50,795 nucleotides of DNA. Origin: a virus. Numbering within the stretch: the first letter of the stretch is position 1; the number at the start of each line of letters is the position of its first letter. The DNA is taken from UHGV virus genome UHGV-0203461, one strand, 5' to 3'. Position numbers and translations under genes: made by a program. Shown one piece after another: positions 1 to 30,046 of this stretch. The notes beneath the pieces were generated by a model. The model was not told the origin of the DNA. It did no database searches and was given only the letters and a program-made list of their open reading frames with translations.

Positions 1-36
1 ATAGTTCAATATAAATTAAAAAGGTGGCTAAATAAC

Positions 37-402
37 ATGATTGGATATAGAATAAAGGAATTAAGAAAAGAAAAAGATATTACTCAAAAAGAACTTGCAA
101 CTTTTTTAGGTCTTACTCCTAAAATGATTTCTTTTTATGAGAAGGAAGAAAGATTTCCTCCACATGACATAATTTTAAAATTATCAGATTTTTTTAATGT
201 ATCTACAGATTATTTGCTTGGAAAGGTCAATGTAAAAAATATAGACAATCTTAGTGAGTTAGAGCTAATTGAAAATCTAAATTTCTCTGATGATATAAAA
301 GAAGCTTTAAAACTAATTAGCGAATTAAGTCCTTCTAGTCAAGAAAAAATGTTCAAAATAGCAAAAGTATTTCTTGAAGAAGAACTTAATGAGAAAAAAT
401 AA
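37..402 (+). CDS. XRE-family HTH transcriptional regulator, cI-like prophage repressor candidate
   Basis: N-terminal XRE helix-turn-helix (IKELRKEKDITQKELATFLGLTPKMISFYEKEE). RBS AAAGGTGG upstream. Divergent from the cro-like gene at the other end of the window. Confidence 0.8.
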   Translation: MIGYRIKELRKEKDITQKELATFLGLTPKMISFYEKEERFPPHDIILKLSDFFNVSTDYLLGKVNVKNIDNLSELELIENLNFSDDIKEALKLISELSPSSQEKMFKIAKVFLEEELNEKK

Positions 403-981
403 GAAAGAGAAGAAAACTATTCTCTTTCTTTTTTATTTTCTTGTTTATAATATTCTTTTAATAATTCTATGTACTTTTCTAACTTCTCACTATTATTTTC
501 TCTTAATTTGTTCAATGTATCCCCTGTGTCAATTAGTAGTTTTTTTGATTTTTCCACACGCCTTCCCCCTACTATCAGAACTTATGTTCTTATTTTTAGT
601 TAAAATTCCCAACAAATTTCAATAAAATATAACTATGTATTTTCATTTCTAAAAATATTTTTAGATTATTCAAAATTTTCTTGGATAATTATCTTACTTA
701 CATAATAATACTTTTGTTAAATATATGCAATAAAAAAAGGGGAATTGTAACAAAAAAATCGAATTTTGTAGAGTCTTGGTTATTTTTTCCATTCCTGTGT
801 ATTATTAATCGTCTTTTTAATTATAATTTTTTGTATTTTCTTGTTTATATAATATTTTTTATAATATATTGTAATTTAAAATTTACACAAAAATTTATAT
901 GTCGATTAAAAATATTATTATATAATATTATTTTTATTAATTTCACATTTAAATTTGTATCTTAATTTACTTTTTCTATTT

Positions 982-1007
982 ACACGTATATAAATACGTG
1001 TTATAAT
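982..1007 (+). promoter_or_regulatory. 8-bp inverted repeat ACACGTAT-N4-ATACGTGT overlapping the TATAAT -10 box upstream of hicA; putative HicB operator
   Basis: Dyad symmetry directly abutting TGTTATAAT, followed by RBS GGAGGG and the hicA ATG at 1027. Confidence 0.4.
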
Positions 1008-1026
1008 ATAATTGTAAGGAGGGAGT

Positions 1027-1224
1027 ATGAAATCTTATTCTTCAAGAGAAATTTTGAAAATACTTAATGCAGATGGATGGTATGAAGTAAATTGTGTTGG
1101 TGACCATCATCAATTTAAACATCCTATTAAAAAAGGTAAGGTCACAGTACCTCATCCAAAAAAGGATTTGCCGATTAGAACTGTGAAAAGTATTTTTAAA
1201 CAAGCAGGGATTAATATTAGTTAA
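1027..1224 (+). CDS. hicA: HicA-family mRNA interferase toxin (type II TA)
   Basis: 65 aa. YcfA/HicA-like sequence (ILNADGWYEV...GDHHQFKHP...KDLPIRTVKSIFKQAGI). Immediately followed by hicB. Confidence 0.75.
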   Translation: MKSYSSREILKILNADGWYEVNCVGDHHQFKHPIKKGKVTVPHPKKDLPIRTVKSIFKQAGINIS

Positions 1225-1264
1225 TCCCTCTCTCTCCTTACAAAAACTTTAAGGAGTTGATATA

Positions 1265-1666
1265 ATGAAAAAAGATATATATGTATATCCTGCTATACTA
1301 AGTTATGATGCAGATGGTATCTCTGTAGAATTTCCCGATTTACCAGGTTGTTACACATGTGGAGATACAACAGAAGAAGCCTTGAAAATGGCAAAAGAAG
1401 CCTTAGGATTACATCTGTATGGGATGGAAGATGATGATGACATAATTCCGGATGCAACTACTATAGATAACTTAAATTTAGAGAAAAATCAAATACCAAC
1501 TTTAATAGAGATATATATGCCAATTCACAGAAAAGCTATAGAAAATTACTCTGTTAAAAAGACTCTTACTATTCCCCAATGGCTTAATAGGGAAGCTGAG
1601 AAACATAAGGTTAATTTCTCTCAAATACTTCAAGAAGCTTTAAAAAATCACCTTAACATTCATTAA
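1265..1666 (+). CDS. hicB: HicB-family antitoxin
   Basis: 133 aa. N-terminal HicB/UPF0150 fold signature (YPAILSYDADGISVEFPDLPGCYTCGDTTEEALKMAKEAL) and a C-terminal DNA-binding tail. Downstream partner of hicA. Confidence 0.7.
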   Translation: MKKDIYVYPAILSYDADGISVEFPDLPGCYTCGDTTEEALKMAKEALGLHLYGMEDDDDIIPDATTIDNLNLEKNQIPTLIEIYMPIHRKAIENYSVKKTLTIPQWLNREAEKHKVNFSQILQEALKNHLNIH

Positions 1667-1724
1667 ATATTAGAGCAGTTCAACTGCTCTTTTATATAAA
1701 AACTTATAAAGGGAGTGTACATAT

Positions 1725-2843
1725 ATGAATATCAAATCAGCTTTTATAAGAAAAAGAGGGGAAAAATTTCATGTATATGTGGAGTACATAGAAGAAATGA
1801 CTGGCAAGATAAAACAGAAAAGTTATGGGAGCTATGAAAAGAAAAAGGATGCTGAAAAACATTTAATTGAAATAAAATCTACTATAAATAGTAATAAGTT
1901 TATTACTCCAAGTAAAACCACTCTTGTAGAGAGGTGTTATAAATACATAATGTCAAATGAAAAAAATTGGTCTCCTTATACAGTTATAAATAGGAAATCT
2001 TGGGTTAAGAATTATATAGAACCTTTTTTTAAAGATACAAAACTTATAGATATAAATCCTGTTTTAATTCAAACTTTTATAAATACAACTTTTAATAATT
2101 GTACTTTTAGTAGCTCAAAGATAAGGTATCGTTTTATAAGTTCTGTTCTGAAAGAAGCATATAGATTAAGAGAAATAAATGAAAATCCATGTGATTTTGT
2201 AAAACTTCCTCATAAAGAAAATTCTTCTAAGATTGAAATATATAATAGAGAAGAAGCTTTATTGTTGATAGAAAAACTAAATAATAGTAACATAGAAATA
2301 CCTATTTTACTAATGTTGACATTAGGTTTGCGACTAGGAGAAGCTACTGGACTTAGATGGACTGATGTTGATTTAAATATCGGCTCTGTAAGTGTAAGTC
2401 AAACACTTATATACGCTAATAATAAAATAGAATTTAAAGAACCTAAAACATCAAAATCAAGAAGAACATTGTCAGCTCCTGATGAACTAATAGAAAAACT
2501 TAAGATTGAAAAATTAAGACAAAATAAATTAAAATTACAAGGAATACTTAAAAATGAAAATAATTTAGTTTGTTTAAACAAAGATTATAATCCATTTTTA
2601 CCAGCTACATTAAGAAAGTCTTTTCATAGATTTATTAAAAAAAATAACTTAAAAAACATTAGGATGCATGATTTAAGACATACAAATGCAAGTTTGCTTT
2701 TATTAGGAGGTACTAACATGAAAGTTGTTTCAGAAAGGTTAGGTCATACAGATATACAAATAACTATGAACAGATACTCTCATGTTTTAGAAGAAATGGA
2801 TAAAAAAGCATCTGATAATTTAAGTAAAATATTATTCAAATAA
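1725..2843 (+). CDS. int: tyrosine-type site-specific integrase
   Basis: 372 aa. C-terminal catalytic motifs (HDLRHTNASLLLLGG...RLGHTDIQITMNRYSHV) typical of phage integrases. Confidence 0.9.
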   Translation: MNIKSAFIRKRGEKFHVYVEYIEEMTGKIKQKSYGSYEKKKDAEKHLIEIKSTINSNKFITPSKTTLVERCYKYIMSNEKNWSPYTVINRKSWVKNYIEPFFKDTKLIDINPVLIQTFINTTFNNCTFSSSKIRYRFISSVLKEAYRLREINENPCDFVKLPHKENSSKIEIYNREEALLLIEKLNNSNIEIPILLMLTLGLRLGEATGLRWTDVDLNIGSVSVSQTLIYANNKIEFKEPKTSKSRRTLSAPDELIEKLKIEKLRQNKLKLQGILKNENNLVCLNKDYNPFLPATLRKSFHRFIKKNNLKNIRMHDLRHTNASLLLLGGTNMKVVSERLGHTDIQITMNRYSHVLEEMDKKASDNLSKILFK

Positions 2844-2855
2844 ATGATTACTGGC

Positions 2856-3164
2856 TGTCAGTTAAATGTCAGTTGAACCTAAAAAAATAGGTTTTGTCAG
2901 TTAAATGTCAGTCAGTTAATTTATAATAATTTCTTTTAAATATCGCTAAAACTACACGTTTTAACATTTATTTATACTTATTTATAAGTATTTATTATTA
3001 TACTTTGGAATAGTTCCCAAACGACTTTTAGTGTTTAAAACCATTGATTTCACGGCATTTTCATTTTTTACTTCAATCTTTTTGTCAGTTAAATGTCAGC
3101 AAAACATTTTATCCACAATTTTTATATAACTTTTCCACAGTTTATCCCCAGCTTTATCCACAAA
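2856..3164 (+). repeat. attP-like repeat field downstream of int: 3 copies of TGTCAGTTAAATGTCAG (each holding two TGTCAG half-sites) plus 3 copies of TTTATCC(A/C)CA
   Basis: Exact 17-mers at 2856-2872, 2895-2911 and 3083-3099. TTTATCCACA-like repeats at 3109-3118, 3140-3149 and 3155-3164. Non-coding and AT-rich. Confidence 0.45.
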
Positions 3165-3194
3165 AAGGTAGCTACTATTGAGTGCTACCTTTTG
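3164..3194. terminator. bidirectional hairpin, 9-bp perfect stem AAAGGTAGC/GCTACCTTT
   Basis: Flanked by an A-run on one side and a T-run on the other. Lies between int and the convergent BlaI-like gene. Confidence 0.45.
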
Positions 3195-3202
3195 GCATAT
3201 TC

Positions 3203-3589
3203 TTATTCTTCATCTTCTTGCAAACTTCTTAACCATTTTTCAAGCGCATCTATTTTATCAATACTTACCTCTTCTTTATCATGTAATTTTGATATTAACT
3301 GTGATAAAGGATTATTATGTAAACCTCCAAATAGTTTTTTAGTTTCTGATTTTAAGTATTCTTTTTCTTTTATTAATATTGTATAATGTGTGTGTTTACC
3401 TATTTTTTGAGAAGCTAAAAAACCTCTTTTAGTTAACCTTAATAAAAGTGTTAGTGTTGTAGTTTGTTTCCATTTATATATTTTTTCCATTTCATCTGCC
3501 ACATCTTTTGATATTACAGTTTTATAACCAGTATTCCATATGTATTTCATAATCTTGAACTCTGAATCTGGTAATTTTTTATTTAGCAT
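3203..3589 (-). CDS. BlaI/MecI/CopY-family winged-helix transcriptional repressor (orphan, no BlaR1 sensor)
   Basis: 128 aa. It aligns over its full length to the penicillinase-repressor pattern (SEFKIMKYIW...TTLTLLLRLTKRGFL...YTIL...). Confidence 0.65.
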   Translation of the reverse strand: MLNKKLPDSEFKIMKYIWNTGYKTVISKDVADEMEKIYKWKQTTTLTLLLRLTKRGFLASQKIGKHTHYTILIKEKEYLKSETKKLFGGLHNNPLSQLISKLHDKEEVSIDKIDALEKWLRSLQEDEE

Positions 3590-3628
3590 AATATCCCCTT
3601 CTTTCTATTAACATATAAAAATATAAAA

Positions 3629-3910
3629 TTATTTTTTTCCTAGTTTCTGCATACTTTCTATAAATACTTTTATTTGTTTCTCTGTCTTTTCTTCTTTTTT
3701 ATGTATAGTTGTAAATACTTGTGTAAAAAAATTATCATATTTACTTACATCTTTTTCTTCTTTTATTACATCTAAATATTCTTTTTTAGTTACTAATACT
3801 TCATAGTTTAATTGAAAACCAACTCTCTTCTTTTTTAATATTCTCATTTTTACTAATCTTCCAAGTAAAATCTCTGTAGTGCTTTTTCTCCACTTATACT
3901 TTTCTTTCAT
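3629..3910 (-). CDS. second BlaI-like paralog, N-terminally truncated or degenerate
   Basis: 93 aa. It is homologous to the C-terminal two-thirds of the neighbouring BlaI-like protein (YKWRKSTTEILLGRLVKMRILKKKRVGFQLNYEVLVTKKEYL against YKWKQTTTLTLLLRLTKRGFL...YTILIKEKEYL). The upstream in-frame extension has no start codon. Confidence 0.4.
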   Translation of the reverse strand: MKEKYKWRKSTTEILLGRLVKMRILKKKRVGFQLNYEVLVTKKEYLDVIKEEKDVSKYDNFFTQVFTTIHKKEEKTEKQIKVFIESMQKLGKK

Positions 3911-4439
3911 TGCTACTTCTATTTCTTTTTTAGATAGAGTAGACTTTTCCCTTCACATGTACTCCATCAACATTAATTCGCCCCTGCGTAATTTACTTTC
4001 TACCTCTTGTCGCTCCATTTATGTCACTTCCTTAATTCGTCTAACTTAAATTAATAATAGGAGCTTTTTAGAACAAAAACTATAGGTAATTTTTACCAAA
4101 TATTCTACTGTTTTAGTTTGTTTTCTTAGAAGAAAAATAACTTTCATATCTATAAAATTATTCAACTTTCAAACTATCCTGTTGAATAATAACTAATTCT
4201 ATTGTATTATTTTAGTTGTAGAATAAAACTAAATCGGCAAAACTAGAGAAATTTAGTGGCATAAATATATATGAACTAAGAATTGTAAAATGAGTTATAA
4301 GTTATATCATCCAGTTATCAAAAACATATACTCTTTTTGTTTTTGTGAAAGTTTTTTAGGTGGCTAATAATATATATACTTAGAGATAAAATAAAATATA
4401 TTTCTAATATTCATAGTTTTATTTTTTCTCAAAATGCGA

Positions 4440-4595
4440 TATAATAAAGATGTAAATTCGTATCAAAAACAAAAAAAGAAACTACAATCTATTAGCCTAG
4501 AGTGAAGTTTCATTAACTAAATATTAATGTCGTTTTTTATTAAACTTGATTTTTACATCAAGCTCAAAGTCACTCCTGCCAGAGTGGCTTTTTAC
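4440..4595 (+). ncRNA. putative antisense antitoxin sRNA of type I TA locus 1 (boundaries approximate)
   Basis: TATAAT -10 box at 4440-4445. The transcript would run antisense into the 3' half of the toxin ORF and stop at the hairpin CACTCCTGCCAGAGTG plus T-run at 4572-4595. The architecture is mirrored at locus 2. Confidence 0.35.
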
Positions 4596-4667
4596 TTTTC
4601 TGGAAATAATATATGTAATAAAGCTAGCTGTTAAACTAGCTAACACTCCTAGTAAAAATTCGCTCAT
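4524..4667 (-). CDS. type I toxin, small membrane peptide, 47 aa (MSEFLLGVLASLTASFITYIISRKVKSHSGRSDFELDVKIKFNKKRH)
   Basis: Absent from the ORF track because it is under 60 aa. RBS GGAAGGAGGTGG. Hydrophobic N-terminal helix with a charged C-tail. Upstream promoter TTGATA-N15-TGTTATAAT at 4758-4784 on the - strand. Paralogous to the peptide at 21445-21606. Confidence 0.6.
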   Translation of the reverse strand: MSEFLLGVLASLTASFITYIISRKVKSHSGRSDFELDVKIKFNKKRH

Positions 4668-4926
4668 TTCTCCACCTCCTTCCTTTTAAGGGATGGAATG
4701 TAGAAAATGAAGCTCCACTCTTAGATTGTAGTTCCACAAGATTATTCTTGCATTTTAATTATAACATAATTTTACAATTATCAAATATCTATTCTTCATA
4801 TTTTTTATTTATACAATATATTCTATATTGCAATAAAAAACATTGTTTTAAATATATATATACATAGGTATATACTAAATATGTTAAACTTAATTATAGA
4901 AAATATAAAATGAAAGGAATAAAAAT

Positions 4927-5115
4927 ATGACTAAGACTATATTATGTGATTACTGTAATAAAGGAATAAACAAAGATGATAATAAGTATATTACTTTTCA
5001 TAAGAAAAGTCATATGAAAACTAACATTTGTATTAATTGTGCATTAAATTTGATAGATAAAGATAAATTAAATGAAAATATTATAAATAATCAACATGGT
5101 TATTCAAAGAAATGA
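4927..5115 (+). CDS. small zinc-ribbon protein (CxxC...CxxC)
   Basis: 62 aa with two Cys pairs. Followed by a hairpin plus T-run near 5310-5340. Confidence 0.3.
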   Translation: MTKTILCDYCNKGINKDDNKYITFHKKSHMKTNICINCALNLIDKDKLNENIINNQHGYSKK

Positions 5116-5709
5116 AAAAGCACTCTCCATAATGAAGAATGCTCTATATAATAATGTTTGACTTAGTAAAGATGTGTTGGGGTTACATATTTACTTTTTT
5201 ATTATATCATATAACTTTGTGTATGAAAAAGAATTTAAATCGATTTTAAGGTGTGTTGAGTAATATTCTTGATAGTTTATATGTTGATGAATTTCAAAAA
5301 AATAAGCACTCTTATAAAAAGAGTACTTTTGGTATATATTCAAGCATTTATCTAATACAATTATAGCATGTCTTATGTTTTAGTCTGATAATTTTCGTTC
5401 GTTTTATTATTACAGCTATAGACATAAAAACAAAAAGTATAAAAACTATTGCTATAGCTTTTATACTTTAAAATTCATAAAATTTTACTACTTAATTTGT
5501 TCTAACAAATACTTATAGTCACTATAAGAAATATACTTATTTGAGAAAGCTTGTTCTTCTAAATATTCTTTTTTTTGTTTTCTTTCTTTAAAAAATACAA
5601 TTATTTTTTTTATCATAAAACACACCCCCTAATTTTGTAGCTATAAATACAATTTAAAATATATTTTTATATAATTATGAACTTAATAGATTAAAATTAT
5701 ACTCAAATA

Positions 5710-6741
5710 TTAAAAAATAGTACATATATAAGTTGCCACAATTCCACAAATAACATTAATTAAAATCGTTAATGATAAGCTACTTTTTATTCCTTTTTCA
5801 TGTTTTTTGTTTTTGATATCTAACTTCTCTCGTTTTATTTTATCTCCATTCGTTATGTTGAATATGTGAGTGTCACCATACTCATAAATTTCTGTCAAAA
5901 ACTTATTTGATAAAAATTCTCCAATATTTTTTATTACTTTATAAATAAGACTAAAAAGCAATGTAAGCATGATTAATTTTTGTATATGACTTATGCTTAA
6001 CTGAACTAAAGTATCTATATTAAAATGCGACAAATTAAAATTAACTATACTTACCAAAACAATTAAGCCAAAAAGTGGTATGATATTTTCTATAACAGCA
6101 GAAATACCTTTTCTATATTTTCTAATAAATTTCATTGTTTTTCCTGATTCAGAAACTACTTTTTGTATTGATTTATCCCATTCTTCTATTATATTTATTA
6201 ATTCATCACCTAATAGATGATTAGTAAAATCAACTTTGCAAGTAACAGGAGATAAGCTTTTATCTATAGAATCTATTTCTTCTATTTGACCACTTACTAT
6301 GAGCTGTAATATCTGTTGAGGCTTCATTCCTGAAGATAGTCTTATTACTAATGTATGTCTCTGAGGAACCCCATATTCTTTAAAATCAACAAAAAAATCA
6401 TACTTTATAGTTATATTTTCTAAATAGTGGGAGCTAGACCAATTACAATTTTGAAATTCTATCCAATCAGAAAACTCTTTGAAAGTATTGTTATCAAACT
6501 TAACTGATATATTCACTATTAAAGCTGCTACTATATAATGTTGTAATTTTTCCTTTATTTTTTCATGTAAAGAATATAAATCTTTTATTTCTACATTTAC
6601 ATCTCTTGGAAAAATTCTAAGCATACTATCAGGTTTCCCGTTCATTAAATTGAATAGAGCCTTTAATTCTTCATGACTTATTCTTGATACATCAAGATTT
6701 TTTTCATCAATCTCACCATAAACTAATTCTTTATTCATCAT
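5710..6741 (-). CDS. membrane protein with a soluble N-terminal domain and 3-4 C-terminal TM helices; candidate abortive-infection or superinfection-exclusion factor in the conversion region
   Basis: 343 aa. The C-terminal third has strongly hydrophobic segments (IIPLFGLIVLVSIVNF, LIMLTLLFSLIY, LTILINVICGIVATYICTIF). No recognisable catalytic motif. Sits between the endolysin and the integrase. Confidence 0.45.
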   Translation of the reverse strand: MMNKELVYGEIDEKNLDVSRISHEELKALFNLMNGKPDSMLRIFPRDVNVEIKDLYSLHEKIKEKLQHYIVAALIVNISVKFDNNTFKEFSDWIEFQNCNWSSSHYLENITIKYDFFVDFKEYGVPQRHTLVIRLSSGMKPQQILQLIVSGQIEEIDSIDKSLSPVTCKVDFTNHLLGDELINIIEEWDKSIQKVVSESGKTMKFIRKYRKGISAVIENIIPLFGLIVLVSIVNFNLSHFNIDTLVQLSISHIQKLIMLTLLFSLIYKVIKNIGEFLSNKFLTEIYEYGDTHIFNITNGDKIKREKLDIKNKKHEKGIKSSLSLTILINVICGIVATYICTIF

Positions 6742-7150
6742 ATAACTCCTCTATTTTTAAAACATTATATTTATATAATAAAATTTCTAAAATATGACAA
6801 TAAATCATATTTATACCCTCTTATCTATTATAATAATATTGGTTTTATCTTTTTTCAACCAATTTTTTCCATATACTGTCTTTATAAATAGAGTAAGTTA
6901 TAAAAATATAGCATATCTTTATATTTTCATATAATAAATAATTCTGCATATGCAACCAATTTATTCAATCTAATTATTTTCTATTTTGTAGTATTTATAC
7001 TTACAATTAAATTTATAACTTATGTCCATCTTAGTTTTATTTTTGCAAGCAACTTATATATTTCTAATATATCATTTTTTGCTTATTATATAGTTAGCAA
7101 ACTGTAAATAAAATATAGATATAAAGTACAAGGTATTAATATCTATATTT

Positions 7151-7948
7151 CTATCTATCAATAAAATCTAATGCTTTATAAAGTGTATCAAATCTATCAC
7201 TGCCATTTATCATAGTATATTTTTCTTTAGTAATAGAACCTATCTTCTCACATGCTGCACCACCAATGACATAAAGATTTTGCGTCTGGCCAGGTACATA
7301 ATCTTTTATATCACATATCAGTATTTTCCCATCATTATAGCCCCAACCAACTACAGTTGCAGGGATTTTGTCAACTTCTCCATCATAAACTATTGTATGT
7401 TTGTACATCTGTTTAACTCCCTCATTATTTATATTTTTATTTAAAATACCTTCTGCTATTAATTTAGCAACTATGTCTTTATGTCTGATATAATAATCTG
7501 TATCTGCTTTACTATCTACGAAGCACACTTCAATTAATATTGCTGGTGCTTTTGTATGACTAAGCCAGTAAAGACCTCTTACGTCTGATTTTGCACCTCT
7601 ATTTTTAAATATTGTTGCTAGTTTTTTGTTGACTCTTTCAGCATATACCTTACCTTTGTTAGTTTTATATATTGTCTCTGTACCCATTGAGTTTAGTGTT
7701 GTTTTATTTGCGTTGAAATGGATTTGTACTGCTAGGTCTACATTCTGTTTATTGGCAATTTCACATTGTTCTGCTAAATAGTTATTAGATTTATCTACTT
7801 TTCCAGTATATACAGTAGCTCCACCTTGTTTCAACCATTTTACTATTAAATCAGTTAAAATTCTATTTTCTTTTCCTTCGTCTATATATCCAGTTGCTCC
7901 AGTTCCTTTTCCTGTTAAAGTATGCCCTGGTACTATTGCTATTTTCAT
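7151..7948 (-). CDS. N-acetylmuramoyl-L-alanine amidase endolysin (Amidase_3 N-terminal domain, CD27L-type C-terminal domain)
   Basis: 265 aa. The C-terminal ~90 aa (NKNINNEGVKQMYKHTIVYDGEVDK...RFDTLYKALDFI) matches the C. difficile phage endolysin CD27L C-domain as I recall it. Start overlaps the holin stop (ATGA). Confidence 0.9.
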   Translation of the reverse strand: MKIAIVPGHTLTGKGTGATGYIDEGKENRILTDLIVKWLKQGGATVYTGKVDKSNNYLAEQCEIANKQNVDLAVQIHFNANKTTLNSMGTETIYKTNKGKVYAERVNKKLATIFKNRGAKSDVRGLYWLSHTKAPAILIEVCFVDSKADTDYYIRHKDIVAKLIAEGILNKNINNEGVKQMYKHTIVYDGEVDKIPATVVGWGYNDGKILICDIKDYVPGQTQNLYVIGGAACEKIGSITKEKYTMINGSDRFDTLYKALDFIDR

Positions 7949-8205
7949 TGTTTATTTTCCTCCTTTAGTTGTTTGTAAGTTTGATTTATACCTATTGATA
8001 TTCCCCAACAAATTACACCTTGCAGTACTGCGTTAGGACTAAACCCTAGCATCCAAATAGAAAATCCGATTCCCAACACAAGTAATATAATTGGAATGTA
8101 TTTATTGTCTAATTGTTTATATTTTTTGCAACCTTTACCTATAATAGAGAGAGCAGCTACTAAAATTAGCAACTGCTCTGGTATAAAACTTATTAAATTA
8201 TCCAT
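7945..8205 (-). CDS. holin
   Basis: 86 aa, two TM helices and a charged C-terminus. Translationally coupled to the endolysin. Confidence 0.6.
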   Translation of the reverse strand: MDNLISFIPEQLLILVAALSIIGKGCKKYKQLDNKYIPIILLVLGIGFSIWMLGFSPNAVLQGVICWGISIGINQTYKQLKEENKQ

Positions 8206-28521: not shown

Positions 28522-28684
28522 TATATTACTTTTTTACCTTTTTCATAAGCCTCTTTAGCTTCTTTTAATGACATTTTATTTGGTCCTTTGTAATTAGTTT
28601 CTTTTGGTCCACTGTTTTGCCAATTACAATTATCACAAATATCAAATACATCTACATCTTTACCACATACTGGACAATTCATGT

Positions 28685-30046
28685 CTAAACCTCCTTATAT
28701 TCTTTTATTTGTTCTAGCCAGTAATTATAACCTTCTTTTGGTTTAAATAAGGTTGATATTTTACCATCAGCTCTTCCAACAGCAAAATCATTAGTACTCT
28801 TTCTATATTTAAATAAAAAGTTATCTTTACTTAAAAATCCTTCTACATCATTACTTAATTGCTCTGATAACAAATTTCTTGCAGTAGATAAATATTCTTC
28901 AGCAGTTATATTTCCATATTCATTTAAGTGTTTTTCTACATGCTTTTTAAATTTCTTTTCAGTTGGGAAATCTGCTTTTAACCAACTCTTATTACTTAGT
29001 ATATCATCTTTTTTATCAGTTATAAATGTCTTTTCATACCATTCTTTATATTTCATACCAGATGGCAAATAATATGTTTTCCCATTGTCATCTCTTGCTG
29101 CTCTATAGCCTTCTTCATCCTCGAACCAAGGAGCTGTTGTTGTCCTACAACGACAATGAAATGGTGGAGCTGTTATTCCAACTTGATAATCTTTCATATC
29201 AAATATTTTTCCATCCAGCTCTCTACATATATTTGAAGTTCTTAAATCTAATGTAGCAATAATCTCATATTTCTCTACATCTAAATCACTAAAACAATCT
29301 TTTCTACTTGCTGATGCAAAGAAAGCTGATTCAGTCATTATCAAATTCTTAGCTTGTGATTTAGATACATTAAATCTCTTAGCAAAGTCATTTACTAAAT
29401 TTTTTGGATTTTCACCTCTAATAATTGATTGAGTTAGCTTAGTATGTAGTTCATTTACTAAAATAGGTCTATACTTACCCCAAATTCTTTCACTAAAGTT
29501 TAATCCATCTGTTGCCCATGGTTTAGAGATAATTTTATTTATTCTATTAGTATCAAGACTCATTAAACTCCAACCAACGTTTACTCCTTGTTGAACATTA
29601 AAAGCTGTATGATAATATCCACTTGTATAAATATGTCTCATTAATTTATCAATACCATCAAGTTCATTTCCATAAAGCACTTCCACTTGTTGCTGTATTT
29701 GTAACTTTAAAGCTTCAAGCCTTGTTATATGAACTCTTGCACTAGCATTTTCTAACTCTTTCATCCACTTTTGATTTATAGCATTTTCTTTACCATATTT
29801 AATATATTCTTCTACACTCCACTTAAACTCTTCTAGCTCCCTTTTATTTAATAGTTTCTTAGCTTCTAATAAAGATATTCCTTCGTTTTTAGCAAATCTG
29901 TTGTACCATGCTAATATATCTTTTTCTATACTATTCATAGCTAGTTTATATTGTTTTTCTAATTCAAGATAATATTTTATGCTCTTATTATTTTGTGCTT
30001 CTTCTAATTGTTCAAATCTCTTCTTCCAATAATCTTTATGTTTCAT
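28685..30046 (-). CDS. MuF/SPP1 gp7-family head morphogenesis protein with a ~100-aa C-terminal extension
   Basis: 453 aa. MuF core (ICRELDGKIFDMKDY...PPFHCRCRTT). Extra C-terminal domain of unknown function. Confidence 0.7.
   Translation of the reverse strand: MKHKDYWKKRFEQLEEAQNNKSIKYYLELEKQYKLAMNSIEKDILAWYNRFAKNEGISLLEAKKLLNKRELEEFKWSVEEYIKYGKENAINQKWMKELENASARVHITRLEALKLQIQQQVEVLYGNELDGIDKLMRHIYTSGYYHTAFNVQQGVNVGWSLMSLDTNRINKIISKPWATDGLNFSERIWGKYRPILVNELHTKLTQSIIRGENPKNLVNDFAKRFNVSKSQAKNLIMTESAFFASASRKDCFSDLDVEKYEIIATLDLRTSNICRELDGKIFDMKDYQVGITAPPFHCRCRTTTAPWFEDEEGYRAARDDNGKTYYLPSGMKYKEWYEKTFITDKKDDILSNKSWLKADFPTEKKFKKHVEKHLNEYGNITAEEYLSTARNLLSEQLSNDVEGFLSKDNFLFKYRKSTNDFAVGRADGKISTLFKPKEGYNYWLEQIKEYKEV

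Follow-up and report, generated by a model that had tools for sequence, protein, structure and literature searches.

A BlaI/MecI-family accessory regulator cassette at the attachment-site end of a temperate Clostridioides difficile phage

Repressors of the BlaI/MecI family are best known from Staphylococcus aureus, in which BlaI is cut at the Asn101-Phe102 bond in helix 5 (PMC9834060). C. difficile strain R20291 carries seven BlaIR-like pairs, one of which alone senses beta-lactams, and in this organism CenIR controls cell-envelope genes and is essential (Kurtz et al. 2026, PMC13492132). Members of the family have also been recorded in C. difficile phages. Hargreaves and Clokie described phiC2 Orf46 as a homolog, with a Penicillinase_R domain, of cdu1, which flanks the pathogenicity locus (PaLoc), and listed phiCD119 gp42, CDHM1 gp39/gp40 and phiMMP02 gp39/gp40 as homologs with 'functions not known' (PMC4009436). 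Rashid et al. named such BlaI-type genes 'repR' (PMC5127024), and RefSeq annotates them as BlaI/MecI/CopY-family regulators. Here we analyse one such pair, called gene A and gene B below, in the UHGV virus genome UHGV-0203461, a stretch of 50,795 nucleotides (nt; the window) that comes from a temperate C. difficile myophage of the phiCD119/CDMH1 type.

C. difficile prophages alter toxin production, surface proteins and fitness, and the regulators that they bring along are mostly untested; few accessory genes of C. difficile myophages are as constant as the BlaI-type gene. The gene pair has already been annotated and discussed in print, and it is an ordinary accessory regulator cassette. What is new here is the recognition of gene B as a nonsense allele, the reading of nearby repeats as arm sites of the phage attachment site attP, a mapped attP core, a candidate operator and the partners of related regulators in the host. 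The reading that we favour, with a probability of roughly 0.5, is that the pair forms a prophage accessory operon outside the lysis–lysogeny switch, in which A would repress itself, B is silenced and the further targets of A are probably host operators.

Gene A encodes a BlaI/MecI-family protein

The two genes lie on the minus strand and comprise the following features.

3203..3589, minus strand: gene A, an intact BlaI/MecI-family winged-helix protein of 128 amino acids (aa), identified by PF03965, phmmer and fold search
3629..4018, minus strand: gene B, a 129-codon BlaI-family paralog with a Trp22-to-stop change, delimited by end-to-end alignment with intact homologs
3953..3955, minus strand: in-frame TGA in place of TGG (Trp22), the Trp being invariant in 11 paralogs
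3629..3910, minus strand: the 93-aa open reading frame (ORF) that gene callers give for B, with a PF03965 match

A first-pass annotation of the window had reported the 128-aa and 93-aa ORFs, and its coordinates for both proved exact. It had also placed them in the penicillinase-repressor family, a claim that profile, PDB-sequence and Foldseek searches uphold. Gene A matches the PF03965 (Penicillinase_R) profile at 81 bits (E = 1e-22; Pfam gathering cutoff, 22.6 bits) over profile positions 3–114 of 115. A phmmer search against PDB sequences returned MecI (1sd6/1okr, E ~2e-9), together with BlaI and the BlaI DNA-binding domain, and when the AlphaFold (AF2) model of the protein was compared with the PDB by Foldseek, the top 14 matches were MecI, BlaI and Mycobacterium tuberculosis Rv1846c. 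Because these three kinds of search concur, the assignment of gene A to the BlaI/MecI family is secure. PHROGs places both gene A (E = 1e-48) and the 93-aa ORF (E = 1e-27) in phrog_1077, 'transcriptional regulator', and the NCBIfam models for CopY/TcrY, BlaI and MecI all matched below threshold, the best being TIGR02698 at 71.6 bits (cutoff 121.95).

The AF2 model, computed for the monomer from an alignment of 30 homologs, predicts an N-terminal winged helix followed by a C-terminal helical dimerization domain. Its helices span residues 8–20 (a1), 27–38 (a2) and 42–54 (a3, the recognition helix); these are followed by a wing at residues 58–71 (strands 58–63 and 66–71) and C-terminal helices at 75–87, 94–103 and 110–126. 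The predicted local distance difference test (pLDDT) score exceeds 90 for residues 11–70, and the C-terminal domain has low confidence in the monomer. An identical gene A protein is recorded on 153 contigs, all family-invariant residues are kept, and the gene evolves under purifying selection, with ratios of non-synonymous to synonymous substitution (dN/dS) of 0.04–0.57 among gene A homologs.

Gene B is a full-length gene with an inherited stop codon

Gene B, which is about 30% identical to gene A, had been taken for a truncated paralog. It is in fact a full-length gene of 129 codons (4018..3629) with an in-frame TGA at 3955..3953, and no deletion product. Translated in frame from the ATG at 4018 it reads MERQEVESKLRRGELMLMEYM, then the stop, then REKSTLSKKEIEVAMKEKYKW and onward, the residues after the stop beginning REKST. 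All 390 nt of the gene align with intact CDMH1 gp39 and phiMMP02 gp39 (both 390 bp), which have TGG at the position of the stop, and this Trp22, in helix 1 of the winged helix, is invariant across 11 phage paralogs of the A and B types. The 93-aa ORF matches PF03965 at 27 bits (E = 6e-6) from profile position 28 onward and has a weak ribosome-binding site (RBS) ahead of it; its product would start inside helix a2 and so lack a1 and most of a2, as judged from boundaries set by alignment to the gene A model.

The stop codon is real, inherited and common, and no sequencing error: phiCD119 (where ORF41 is 282 bp), 12 IMG/VR contigs and six lysogen genomes, independent of one another, share the TGA, and the exact 93-aa product (Q24LF7_BPPCD) is recorded for at least 1000 contigs, whereas the intact CDMH1-type B is recorded for 42. 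Among the copies retrieved that share the 41-bp background of this gene B, none has the TGG version and 19/19 have TGA. There is no further damage downstream of the stop. When it is compared with intact B genes, dN/dS values are 0.19–0.43, and the B lineage as a whole is under purifying selection (0.19–0.45); the nonsense copies themselves differ by about six single-nucleotide polymorphisms over 19 contexts, too little diversity for relaxed selection to be gauged by dN/dS.

A conserved promoter with a candidate operator

Upstream of gene B we find two further elements.

4102..4107, minus strand: TAGAAT, the candidate -10 box of the B–A operon, conserved in 14 phage/prophage loci
4085..4097, no strand: the palindrome GGTAA-N3-TTACC, a candidate autoregulatory operator directly downstream of the -10 box

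In the 14 loci, the sequence ahead of B runs TAGAAT, 4 nt and then GGTAA-N3-TTACC. Sixteen fetched loci from C. difficile phages and prophages have the palindrome at the same place ahead of one or both BlaI genes, among them A-only loci from which B has been precisely deleted; its half-sites are constant, and the spacer and flanks vary. It occurs a single time in the 50.8-kb window. A dyad over the putative transcription start fits negative autoregulation, and we regard GGTAA-N3-TTACC as a candidate autoregulatory operator. The TACA/TGTA operators that the first-pass annotation had in mind were sought as TACAnnTGTA with up to one mismatch. This cop/bla box has zero matches in the operon promoter (4019–4200) and was rejected as its operator; the whole window holds 69 matches, against 41.5 expected.

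Gene A is the last gene of the prophage

Beyond the 3′ end of gene A lie a terminator and the attachment site.

3162..3189, minus strand: intrinsic terminator 3′ of gene A, with the hairpin GGUAGCACU-CAAU-AGUAGCUACC followed by UUUUU, supported by folding against shuffles
3083..3162, plus strand: probable attP arm repeats on the gene A side, consisting of one TGTCAGTTAAATGTCAG and four TTATCCACA-like boxes
2995..3017, no strand: attP core TTATTATACTTTGGAATAGTTCC, defined by identity to attL and attR of lysogens

The core was mapped by comparing the window with both prophage ends of one genome, CP016318 (attL, locus L066; attR, locus L009). Identity on the side of the integrase gene (int), that is to attL, extends to 3017, and identity on the gene A side, to attR (L009, and likewise L008 and L013), reaches down to 2995. 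This mapping is new, and with the core at 2995–3017 gene A is the last gene of the prophage and reads outward; it is the terminal, outward-reading gene in 6/6 lysogens examined. The core also confirms the earlier placement of the pair next to attP, between int/attP and a small toxin-like ORF (4524–4667). The host gene that the prophage interrupts is left as two pieces, one an aldo-keto-reductase fragment of 217 aa and the other a 183-aa fragment with a 4Fe-4S ferredoxin domain; gene callers carry both on into phage DNA.

The 52-nt segment with the terminator (3155–3206) has a minimum free energy of -15.7 kcal/mol (z = -3.3), and 0/200 shuffles fold as well. Between the terminator and the attP core sit the arm repeats. 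Copies of TGTCAGTTAAATGTCAG flank the core, at 2856–2872 and 2895–2911 on the int side and at 3083–3099 on the gene A side, and the TTATCCACA-like boxes at 3109, 3131, 3142 and 3154 are direct repeats spaced by 22, 11 and 12 bp. Both repeat types are present in CDMH1, phiCD119 and phiCDHM19, which have the same integrase/attP type, and neither occurs in phiMMP02, phiC2 or phiCD505, phages that combine the BlaI pair with other integrases. The integrase bears the arm-binding domain Arm-DNA-bind_4, and the layout of TGTCAGTTAAATGTCAG is typical of arm-type integrase sites. Given this domain and a distribution that tracks the integrase type, the two kinds of repeat are probably attP arm sites for the integrase or an excisionase. 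The TTTATCCACA repeats (3109–3164) had been put forward as possible operators of the BlaI-type genes, which is unlikely: their occurrence follows the integrase type rather than these genes. As direct repeats in the attP arm, beyond the terminator, they were ruled out as BlaI operators.

The four same-strand boxes at 3109–3162 also fit the DnaA-box consensus TTATCCACA, two of them perfectly and two with one mismatch; the whole window contains 17 matches to this consensus. A separate observation concerns locus L010 (C. difficile FUMV01000001, 8390–8510), where a prophage with a cassette identical to that of the window, nonsense B followed by A (psiB-A), lies beside a gene for a sodium:dicarboxylate symporter of the SDF family. 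Its match to the attP arm of the window stops at about position 3082, an end point from which we conclude that cassette and arm recombined onto a different core and integrase.

The cassette recurs in C. difficile phages with repeated damage

By tblastn, 35 phage records contain A-type genes, and 29 of these records come from C. difficile. The arrangement promoter, B, A, attP is found together with four or more types of integrase. Whether the two genes are intact varies from phage to phage, as follows.

CDMH1, phiCD505 and phiC2: gene B intact, gene A intact
This window: gene B nonsense, gene A intact
phiCD119: gene B nonsense, gene A without its C-terminal third
phiMMP02: gene B intact, gene A frameshifted
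phiCDHM19 and the prophage at locus L014: gene B precisely deleted (RBS of B fused to RBS of A), gene A intact

CDMH1 gp40 is 99% identical to gene A and CDMH1 gp39 is the intact form of B, and the cassette of the window combines the phiCD119-type nonsense B with the CDMH1-type full-length A. At the A-only junctions, located at 2480–2503 in L005 (phiCDHM19) and at 5980–6003 in L014, the RBS and start of B (GTGACATAAATTG) are joined directly to the RBS of A, and both prophages retain the promoter and dyad. The conversion cargo is wholly different among prophages with identical psiB-A, and includes M78/PycTM, SecB-like, DUF6650, AP2 and agr genes.

Phage regulators without a sensor and host paralogs with one

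No HExxH motif is present in any stop-to-stop ORF of at least 60 aa in the six frames of the window, so that it encodes no zinc protease of the HExxH kind, M56 and M78 included; Peptidase_M56 is not among the 25/57 matched families listed for the 60 ORFs scanned. There is likewise no CopZ/HMA protein in the window, its sole MxCxxC ORF (28524–28694) encoding a Cys_rich_CPCC zinc-ribbon protein. With neither an HExxH ORF nor CopZ, the description of the phage genes as orphans stands. A and B contain zero cysteines, so that a CopY-type metal site (CxCx4CxC) is impossible. The gene A residues that align with the S. aureus scissile bond are Lys101-Leu102, and C. difficile paralogs that are coupled to M56 proteins have Ala/Ser-Leu at this position; the cleavage motif of the C. 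difficile clade may simply differ from that of S. aureus.

BlaR1-like sensors, which the first-pass annotation had proposed to look for in the host, are present there, in that chromosomal paralogs show translational coupling to Peptidase_M56 proteins. In the representative genomes that were scanned, C. difficile has 6–10 paralogs per genome. Those at loci L022-L025, L036, L040 and L042, which are 40–52% identical to A, have overlapping stop and start codons with the next gene, which encodes a protein of about 345–382 aa with HExxH near residue 185. Pfam finds Peptidase_M56 and a C-terminal PG_binding_5 domain in the seven full-length coupled proteins tested (375–382 aa), and a secreted protein with two peptidoglycan-binding domains follows the regulator–M56 pair. 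These loci were matched to the uncharacterised cdr_2276-2280 cluster (PMC13492132) by domain architecture.

The recognition-helix segment of A, WKQTTTLTLLLRLTK, matches WKQTTTLTLLSRLVK of the host regulators and chromosomal orphans at 13/15 positions, and that of B differs (WRKSTTEILLKRLVK). In the helix-5 segment A has LISKLH and the host M56-paired regulators have LISALH, a motif that the phiC2 A-type protein shares. A chromosomal orphan (L026/L063) is 51% identical to A; the orphan (L026, L062, L063) follows a two-component system and may be cdu1, although the sole contig from a possibly toxigenic strain breaks off 659 bp past the gene. We also note two integrase-adjacent elements, L042 (CD160) and L061 (OX244046), in which a BlaI-type regulator is still accompanied by an M56 gene, the pair being complete in L042 but truncated in L061; the phage orphans may descend from such a state.

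Neighbouring genes and phage identity

Bases 1–7470 of the window are 97% identical to Clostridium phage CDMH1 across 61% of their length, other stretches match phiCD119, phiCDHM19, phiMMP02 and phiC2, and C. difficile phages account for 100% of the matches. Around the cassette, the window holds the following genes.

37-402: cI-like HTH_3 repressor (Pfam)
1027-1666: HicA/HicB
1725-2843, plus strand: tyrosine integrase (Pfam Phage_integrase, Phage_int_SAM_3 and Arm-DNA-bind_4), converging with gene A on attP
7151-8205: endolysin and holin
Beyond endolysin and holin, minus strand: structural genes

The overall order is HTH_3 repressor, HicA/HicB, int, attP, the two BlaI-type ORFs, the toxin-like ORF, ORFs of unknown function, lysis genes and structural genes. 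With the lysis genes on one side and attP on the other, the BlaI-type genes belong to the accessory region, and the HTH_3 repressor and anti-repressor genes are on the opposite side of int.

The toxin-like ORF (4524–4667, minus strand) encodes 47 aa with a hydrophobic N terminus and a Lys-rich tail, in the manner of type I toxins, and has convergent terminator-like hairpins on either side, on both strands. It resembles the type I toxin CD0977.1 of phiCD630-1 (PMC7699646) in length and style, and an Rfam search of 2500–7200 (E up to 0.1) found no riboswitch for cyclic di-GMP like the one beside CD0977.1-RCd11. A 343-aa ORF (5710–6741, minus strand) with predicted C-terminal membrane segments fills the slot of the CDMH1 agr genes and has no Pfam or PADLOC match; PADLOC defence models gave zero matches to A, B, this ORF and the small ORFs. 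A 62-aa Cys-rich ORF (4927–5115, plus strand), with a weak LIM-like zinc-finger match (E = 0.03), adjoins the BlaI cassette in many C. difficile phages and is conserved there. In CDMH1 it is labelled 'putative sigma factor', a label to which its sequence gives no support.

A proposed mechanism and its alternatives

In the operon that we propose, one promoter (-10 TAGAAT, 4107..4102) would drive B and then A, and transcription would end at the hairpin that precedes the attP arm. If it behaves like BlaI and MecI, the gene A protein would bind DNA as a homodimer and repress transcription. Its likeliest phage target would be its own promoter, reached through GGTAA-N3-TTACC, which would amount to negative autoregulation. 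Production of B would be abolished, or left at trace level, by the Trp22-to-UGA change that is fixed in this allele. A might further act on host operators of the M56-coupled paralog family, which the near-identical recognition helix makes probable targets. Because the phage has no sensor and A has neither the Asn-Phe site nor the CopY Cys motif, any signal would have to come from a host BlaR-like M56 protease. We infer that A binds DNA, regulates itself, has host targets and is expressed in lysogens, and that it is most likely a dispensable accessory repressor rather than an immunity repressor.

Several observations weigh against this reading. At least one match to GGTAA-N3-TTACC also occurs in 20/100 shuffles, and the palindrome is unlike the TACA/TGTA boxes of BlaI, MecI and CopY. 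The whole promoter region is more than 90% conserved among these phages, which makes conservation of the palindrome weak as independent evidence. Host paralogs with the recognition helix of A do not have the dyad in their promoters, which counts either against the operator assignment or against the idea of shared targets; these host promoters have a common TTGACT-N17-TAG(T/A)AT and locus-specific dyads, and no common operator could be derived by motif comparison with them. A literature search that included locus tags found nothing relevant on expression of these genes in lysogens. Finally, A or B is often damaged in phages that are viable, which could also mean that selection on the cassette is only weak.

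The damaged copies also bear on the proposal, made in the first-pass annotation, that the BlaI-type gene is a second lysogeny-maintenance repressor, or, in a related form, a superinfection-immunity repressor. The gene belongs to a repressor family, stands beside int/attP, is conserved in many C. difficile temperate phages and has been called 'repR' (PMC5127024). Yet phiCD119, with nonsense B and a shortened A, and phiMMP02, with a frameshifted A, were isolated as temperate, and lysogens of phiCD119 do form (PMC4009436), from which it follows that lysogeny does not depend on the cassette. In phiCD119 it is ORF45 that encodes RepR proper, on the far side of int and distinct from the BlaI-type ORF41 and ORF42, so that 'repR' is a misnomer for the latter. 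The reported RepR homolog of CDMH1 is gp43 (PMC4009436), the counterpart of which in the window is its own HTH_3 repressor at 37-402. The BlaI-type genes are in the accessory region, and the candidate operator is found at the promoter of their own operon only, with none at early lytic promoters. They thus have neither the location at the switch nor the indispensability for lysogeny that mark a CI-type repressor, and we consider such a role very improbable. Loss of all function is a different way to read the same damage, the cassette being then a decaying remnant of a former BlaI–M56 module. The disruptions are repeated (Trp22 to stop in B here, a frameshift in A of phiMMP02, a shortened A in phiCD119 and deletion of B in phiCDHM19 and L014), but the purifying selection on A, its intact set of family-invariant residues and its persistence in one place alongside four or more types of integrase make a functionless remnant improbable.

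Two alternatives would give A another task. It could be signal-coupled, in line with the hijacking role raised in the first-pass annotation, and be cleaved by a host BlaR-like M56 protease under envelope stress so that its targets are derepressed, or it could be a decoy that titrates the protease. The host regulators of the same family, 40–52% identical to A and coupled to Peptidase_M56 with a peptidoglycan-binding domain, speak for this, as do the helix-5 likeness, complete in the phiC2 A-type protein, and the complete regulator–M56 pair of the integrase-adjacent element L042. However, Lys101-Leu102 replaces Asn101-Phe102 in A and the phage encodes no protease, and we judge signal coupling unlikely, if conceivable. 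A could also be a local regulator of the adjacent conversion genes, such as the type-I-toxin-like ORF, the 343-aa membrane protein or agr in CDMH1. These genes are adjacent, and the B–A promoter is back to back with the region of the small toxin-like ORF; against this, the cargo differs completely among prophages with identical psiB-A and the palindrome is present only once in the window, which leaves a local role with little to recommend it.

A more speculative extension of the accessory-operon reading, to which we attach low credence, is that the cassette is a prophage device tapping the BlaIR-like envelope circuits of the host. A would then duplicate the M56-controlled repressors of the host but be blind to their signal or gated differently; it would occupy their operators and alter the regulation of peptidoglycan-related genes in the lysogen, and B would persist as a 'leaky' gene. 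Low-level decoding of UGA as Trp is known in Bacillus subtilis. With UGA exactly at the Trp codon, such decoding would regenerate traces of wild-type B, and a leaky B could explain how a single nonsense allele spread without further decay. If the phage copy does bind host operators of the paralog family, a lysogen would have its envelope homeostasis or its control of lysis rewired.

Comparison with known systems

The BlaI and MecI proteins of S. aureus and the BlaI of Bacillus licheniformis (1sd4, 1xsd, 1okr, 2d45 and 1p6r) belong to the same Pfam family as A, have a similar length (~125 aa) and show the winged-helix plus three-helix dimerization fold that is predicted for A. The phage gene differs from them in having no adjacent BlaR1/MecR1 or resistance gene, in its position at the attachment-site end, in the exchange of the scissile Asn-Phe for Lys-Leu and in a promoter without a TACA/TGTA operator. 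CopY/TcrY (TIGR02698) belongs to the same superfamily and gave the best NCBIfam match, far under the cutoff; unlike it, A has no cysteine and hence no CxCx4CxC motif, and the phage has no CopZ, cop operon or cop box.

CenIR, cdr_2276/2277 and cdr_2279/2280 with the peptidoglycan-binding CDR_2278 (PMC13492132) share both host and regulator family with A. These non-canonical BlaIR systems have an M56 partner, which the phage genes lack, and the likeness of the cdr_2276-2280 cluster to the chromosomal loci described above is one of domain architecture. The RepR protein of phiCD119, which down-regulates tcdR, is also a phage regulator but differs from the BlaI-type genes in family and locus. Closest of all are phiC2 Orf46, phiCD119 gp42, CDHM1 gp39/gp40 and phiMMP02 gp39/gp40, which are the same genes or their orthologs, with no essential difference from those described here.

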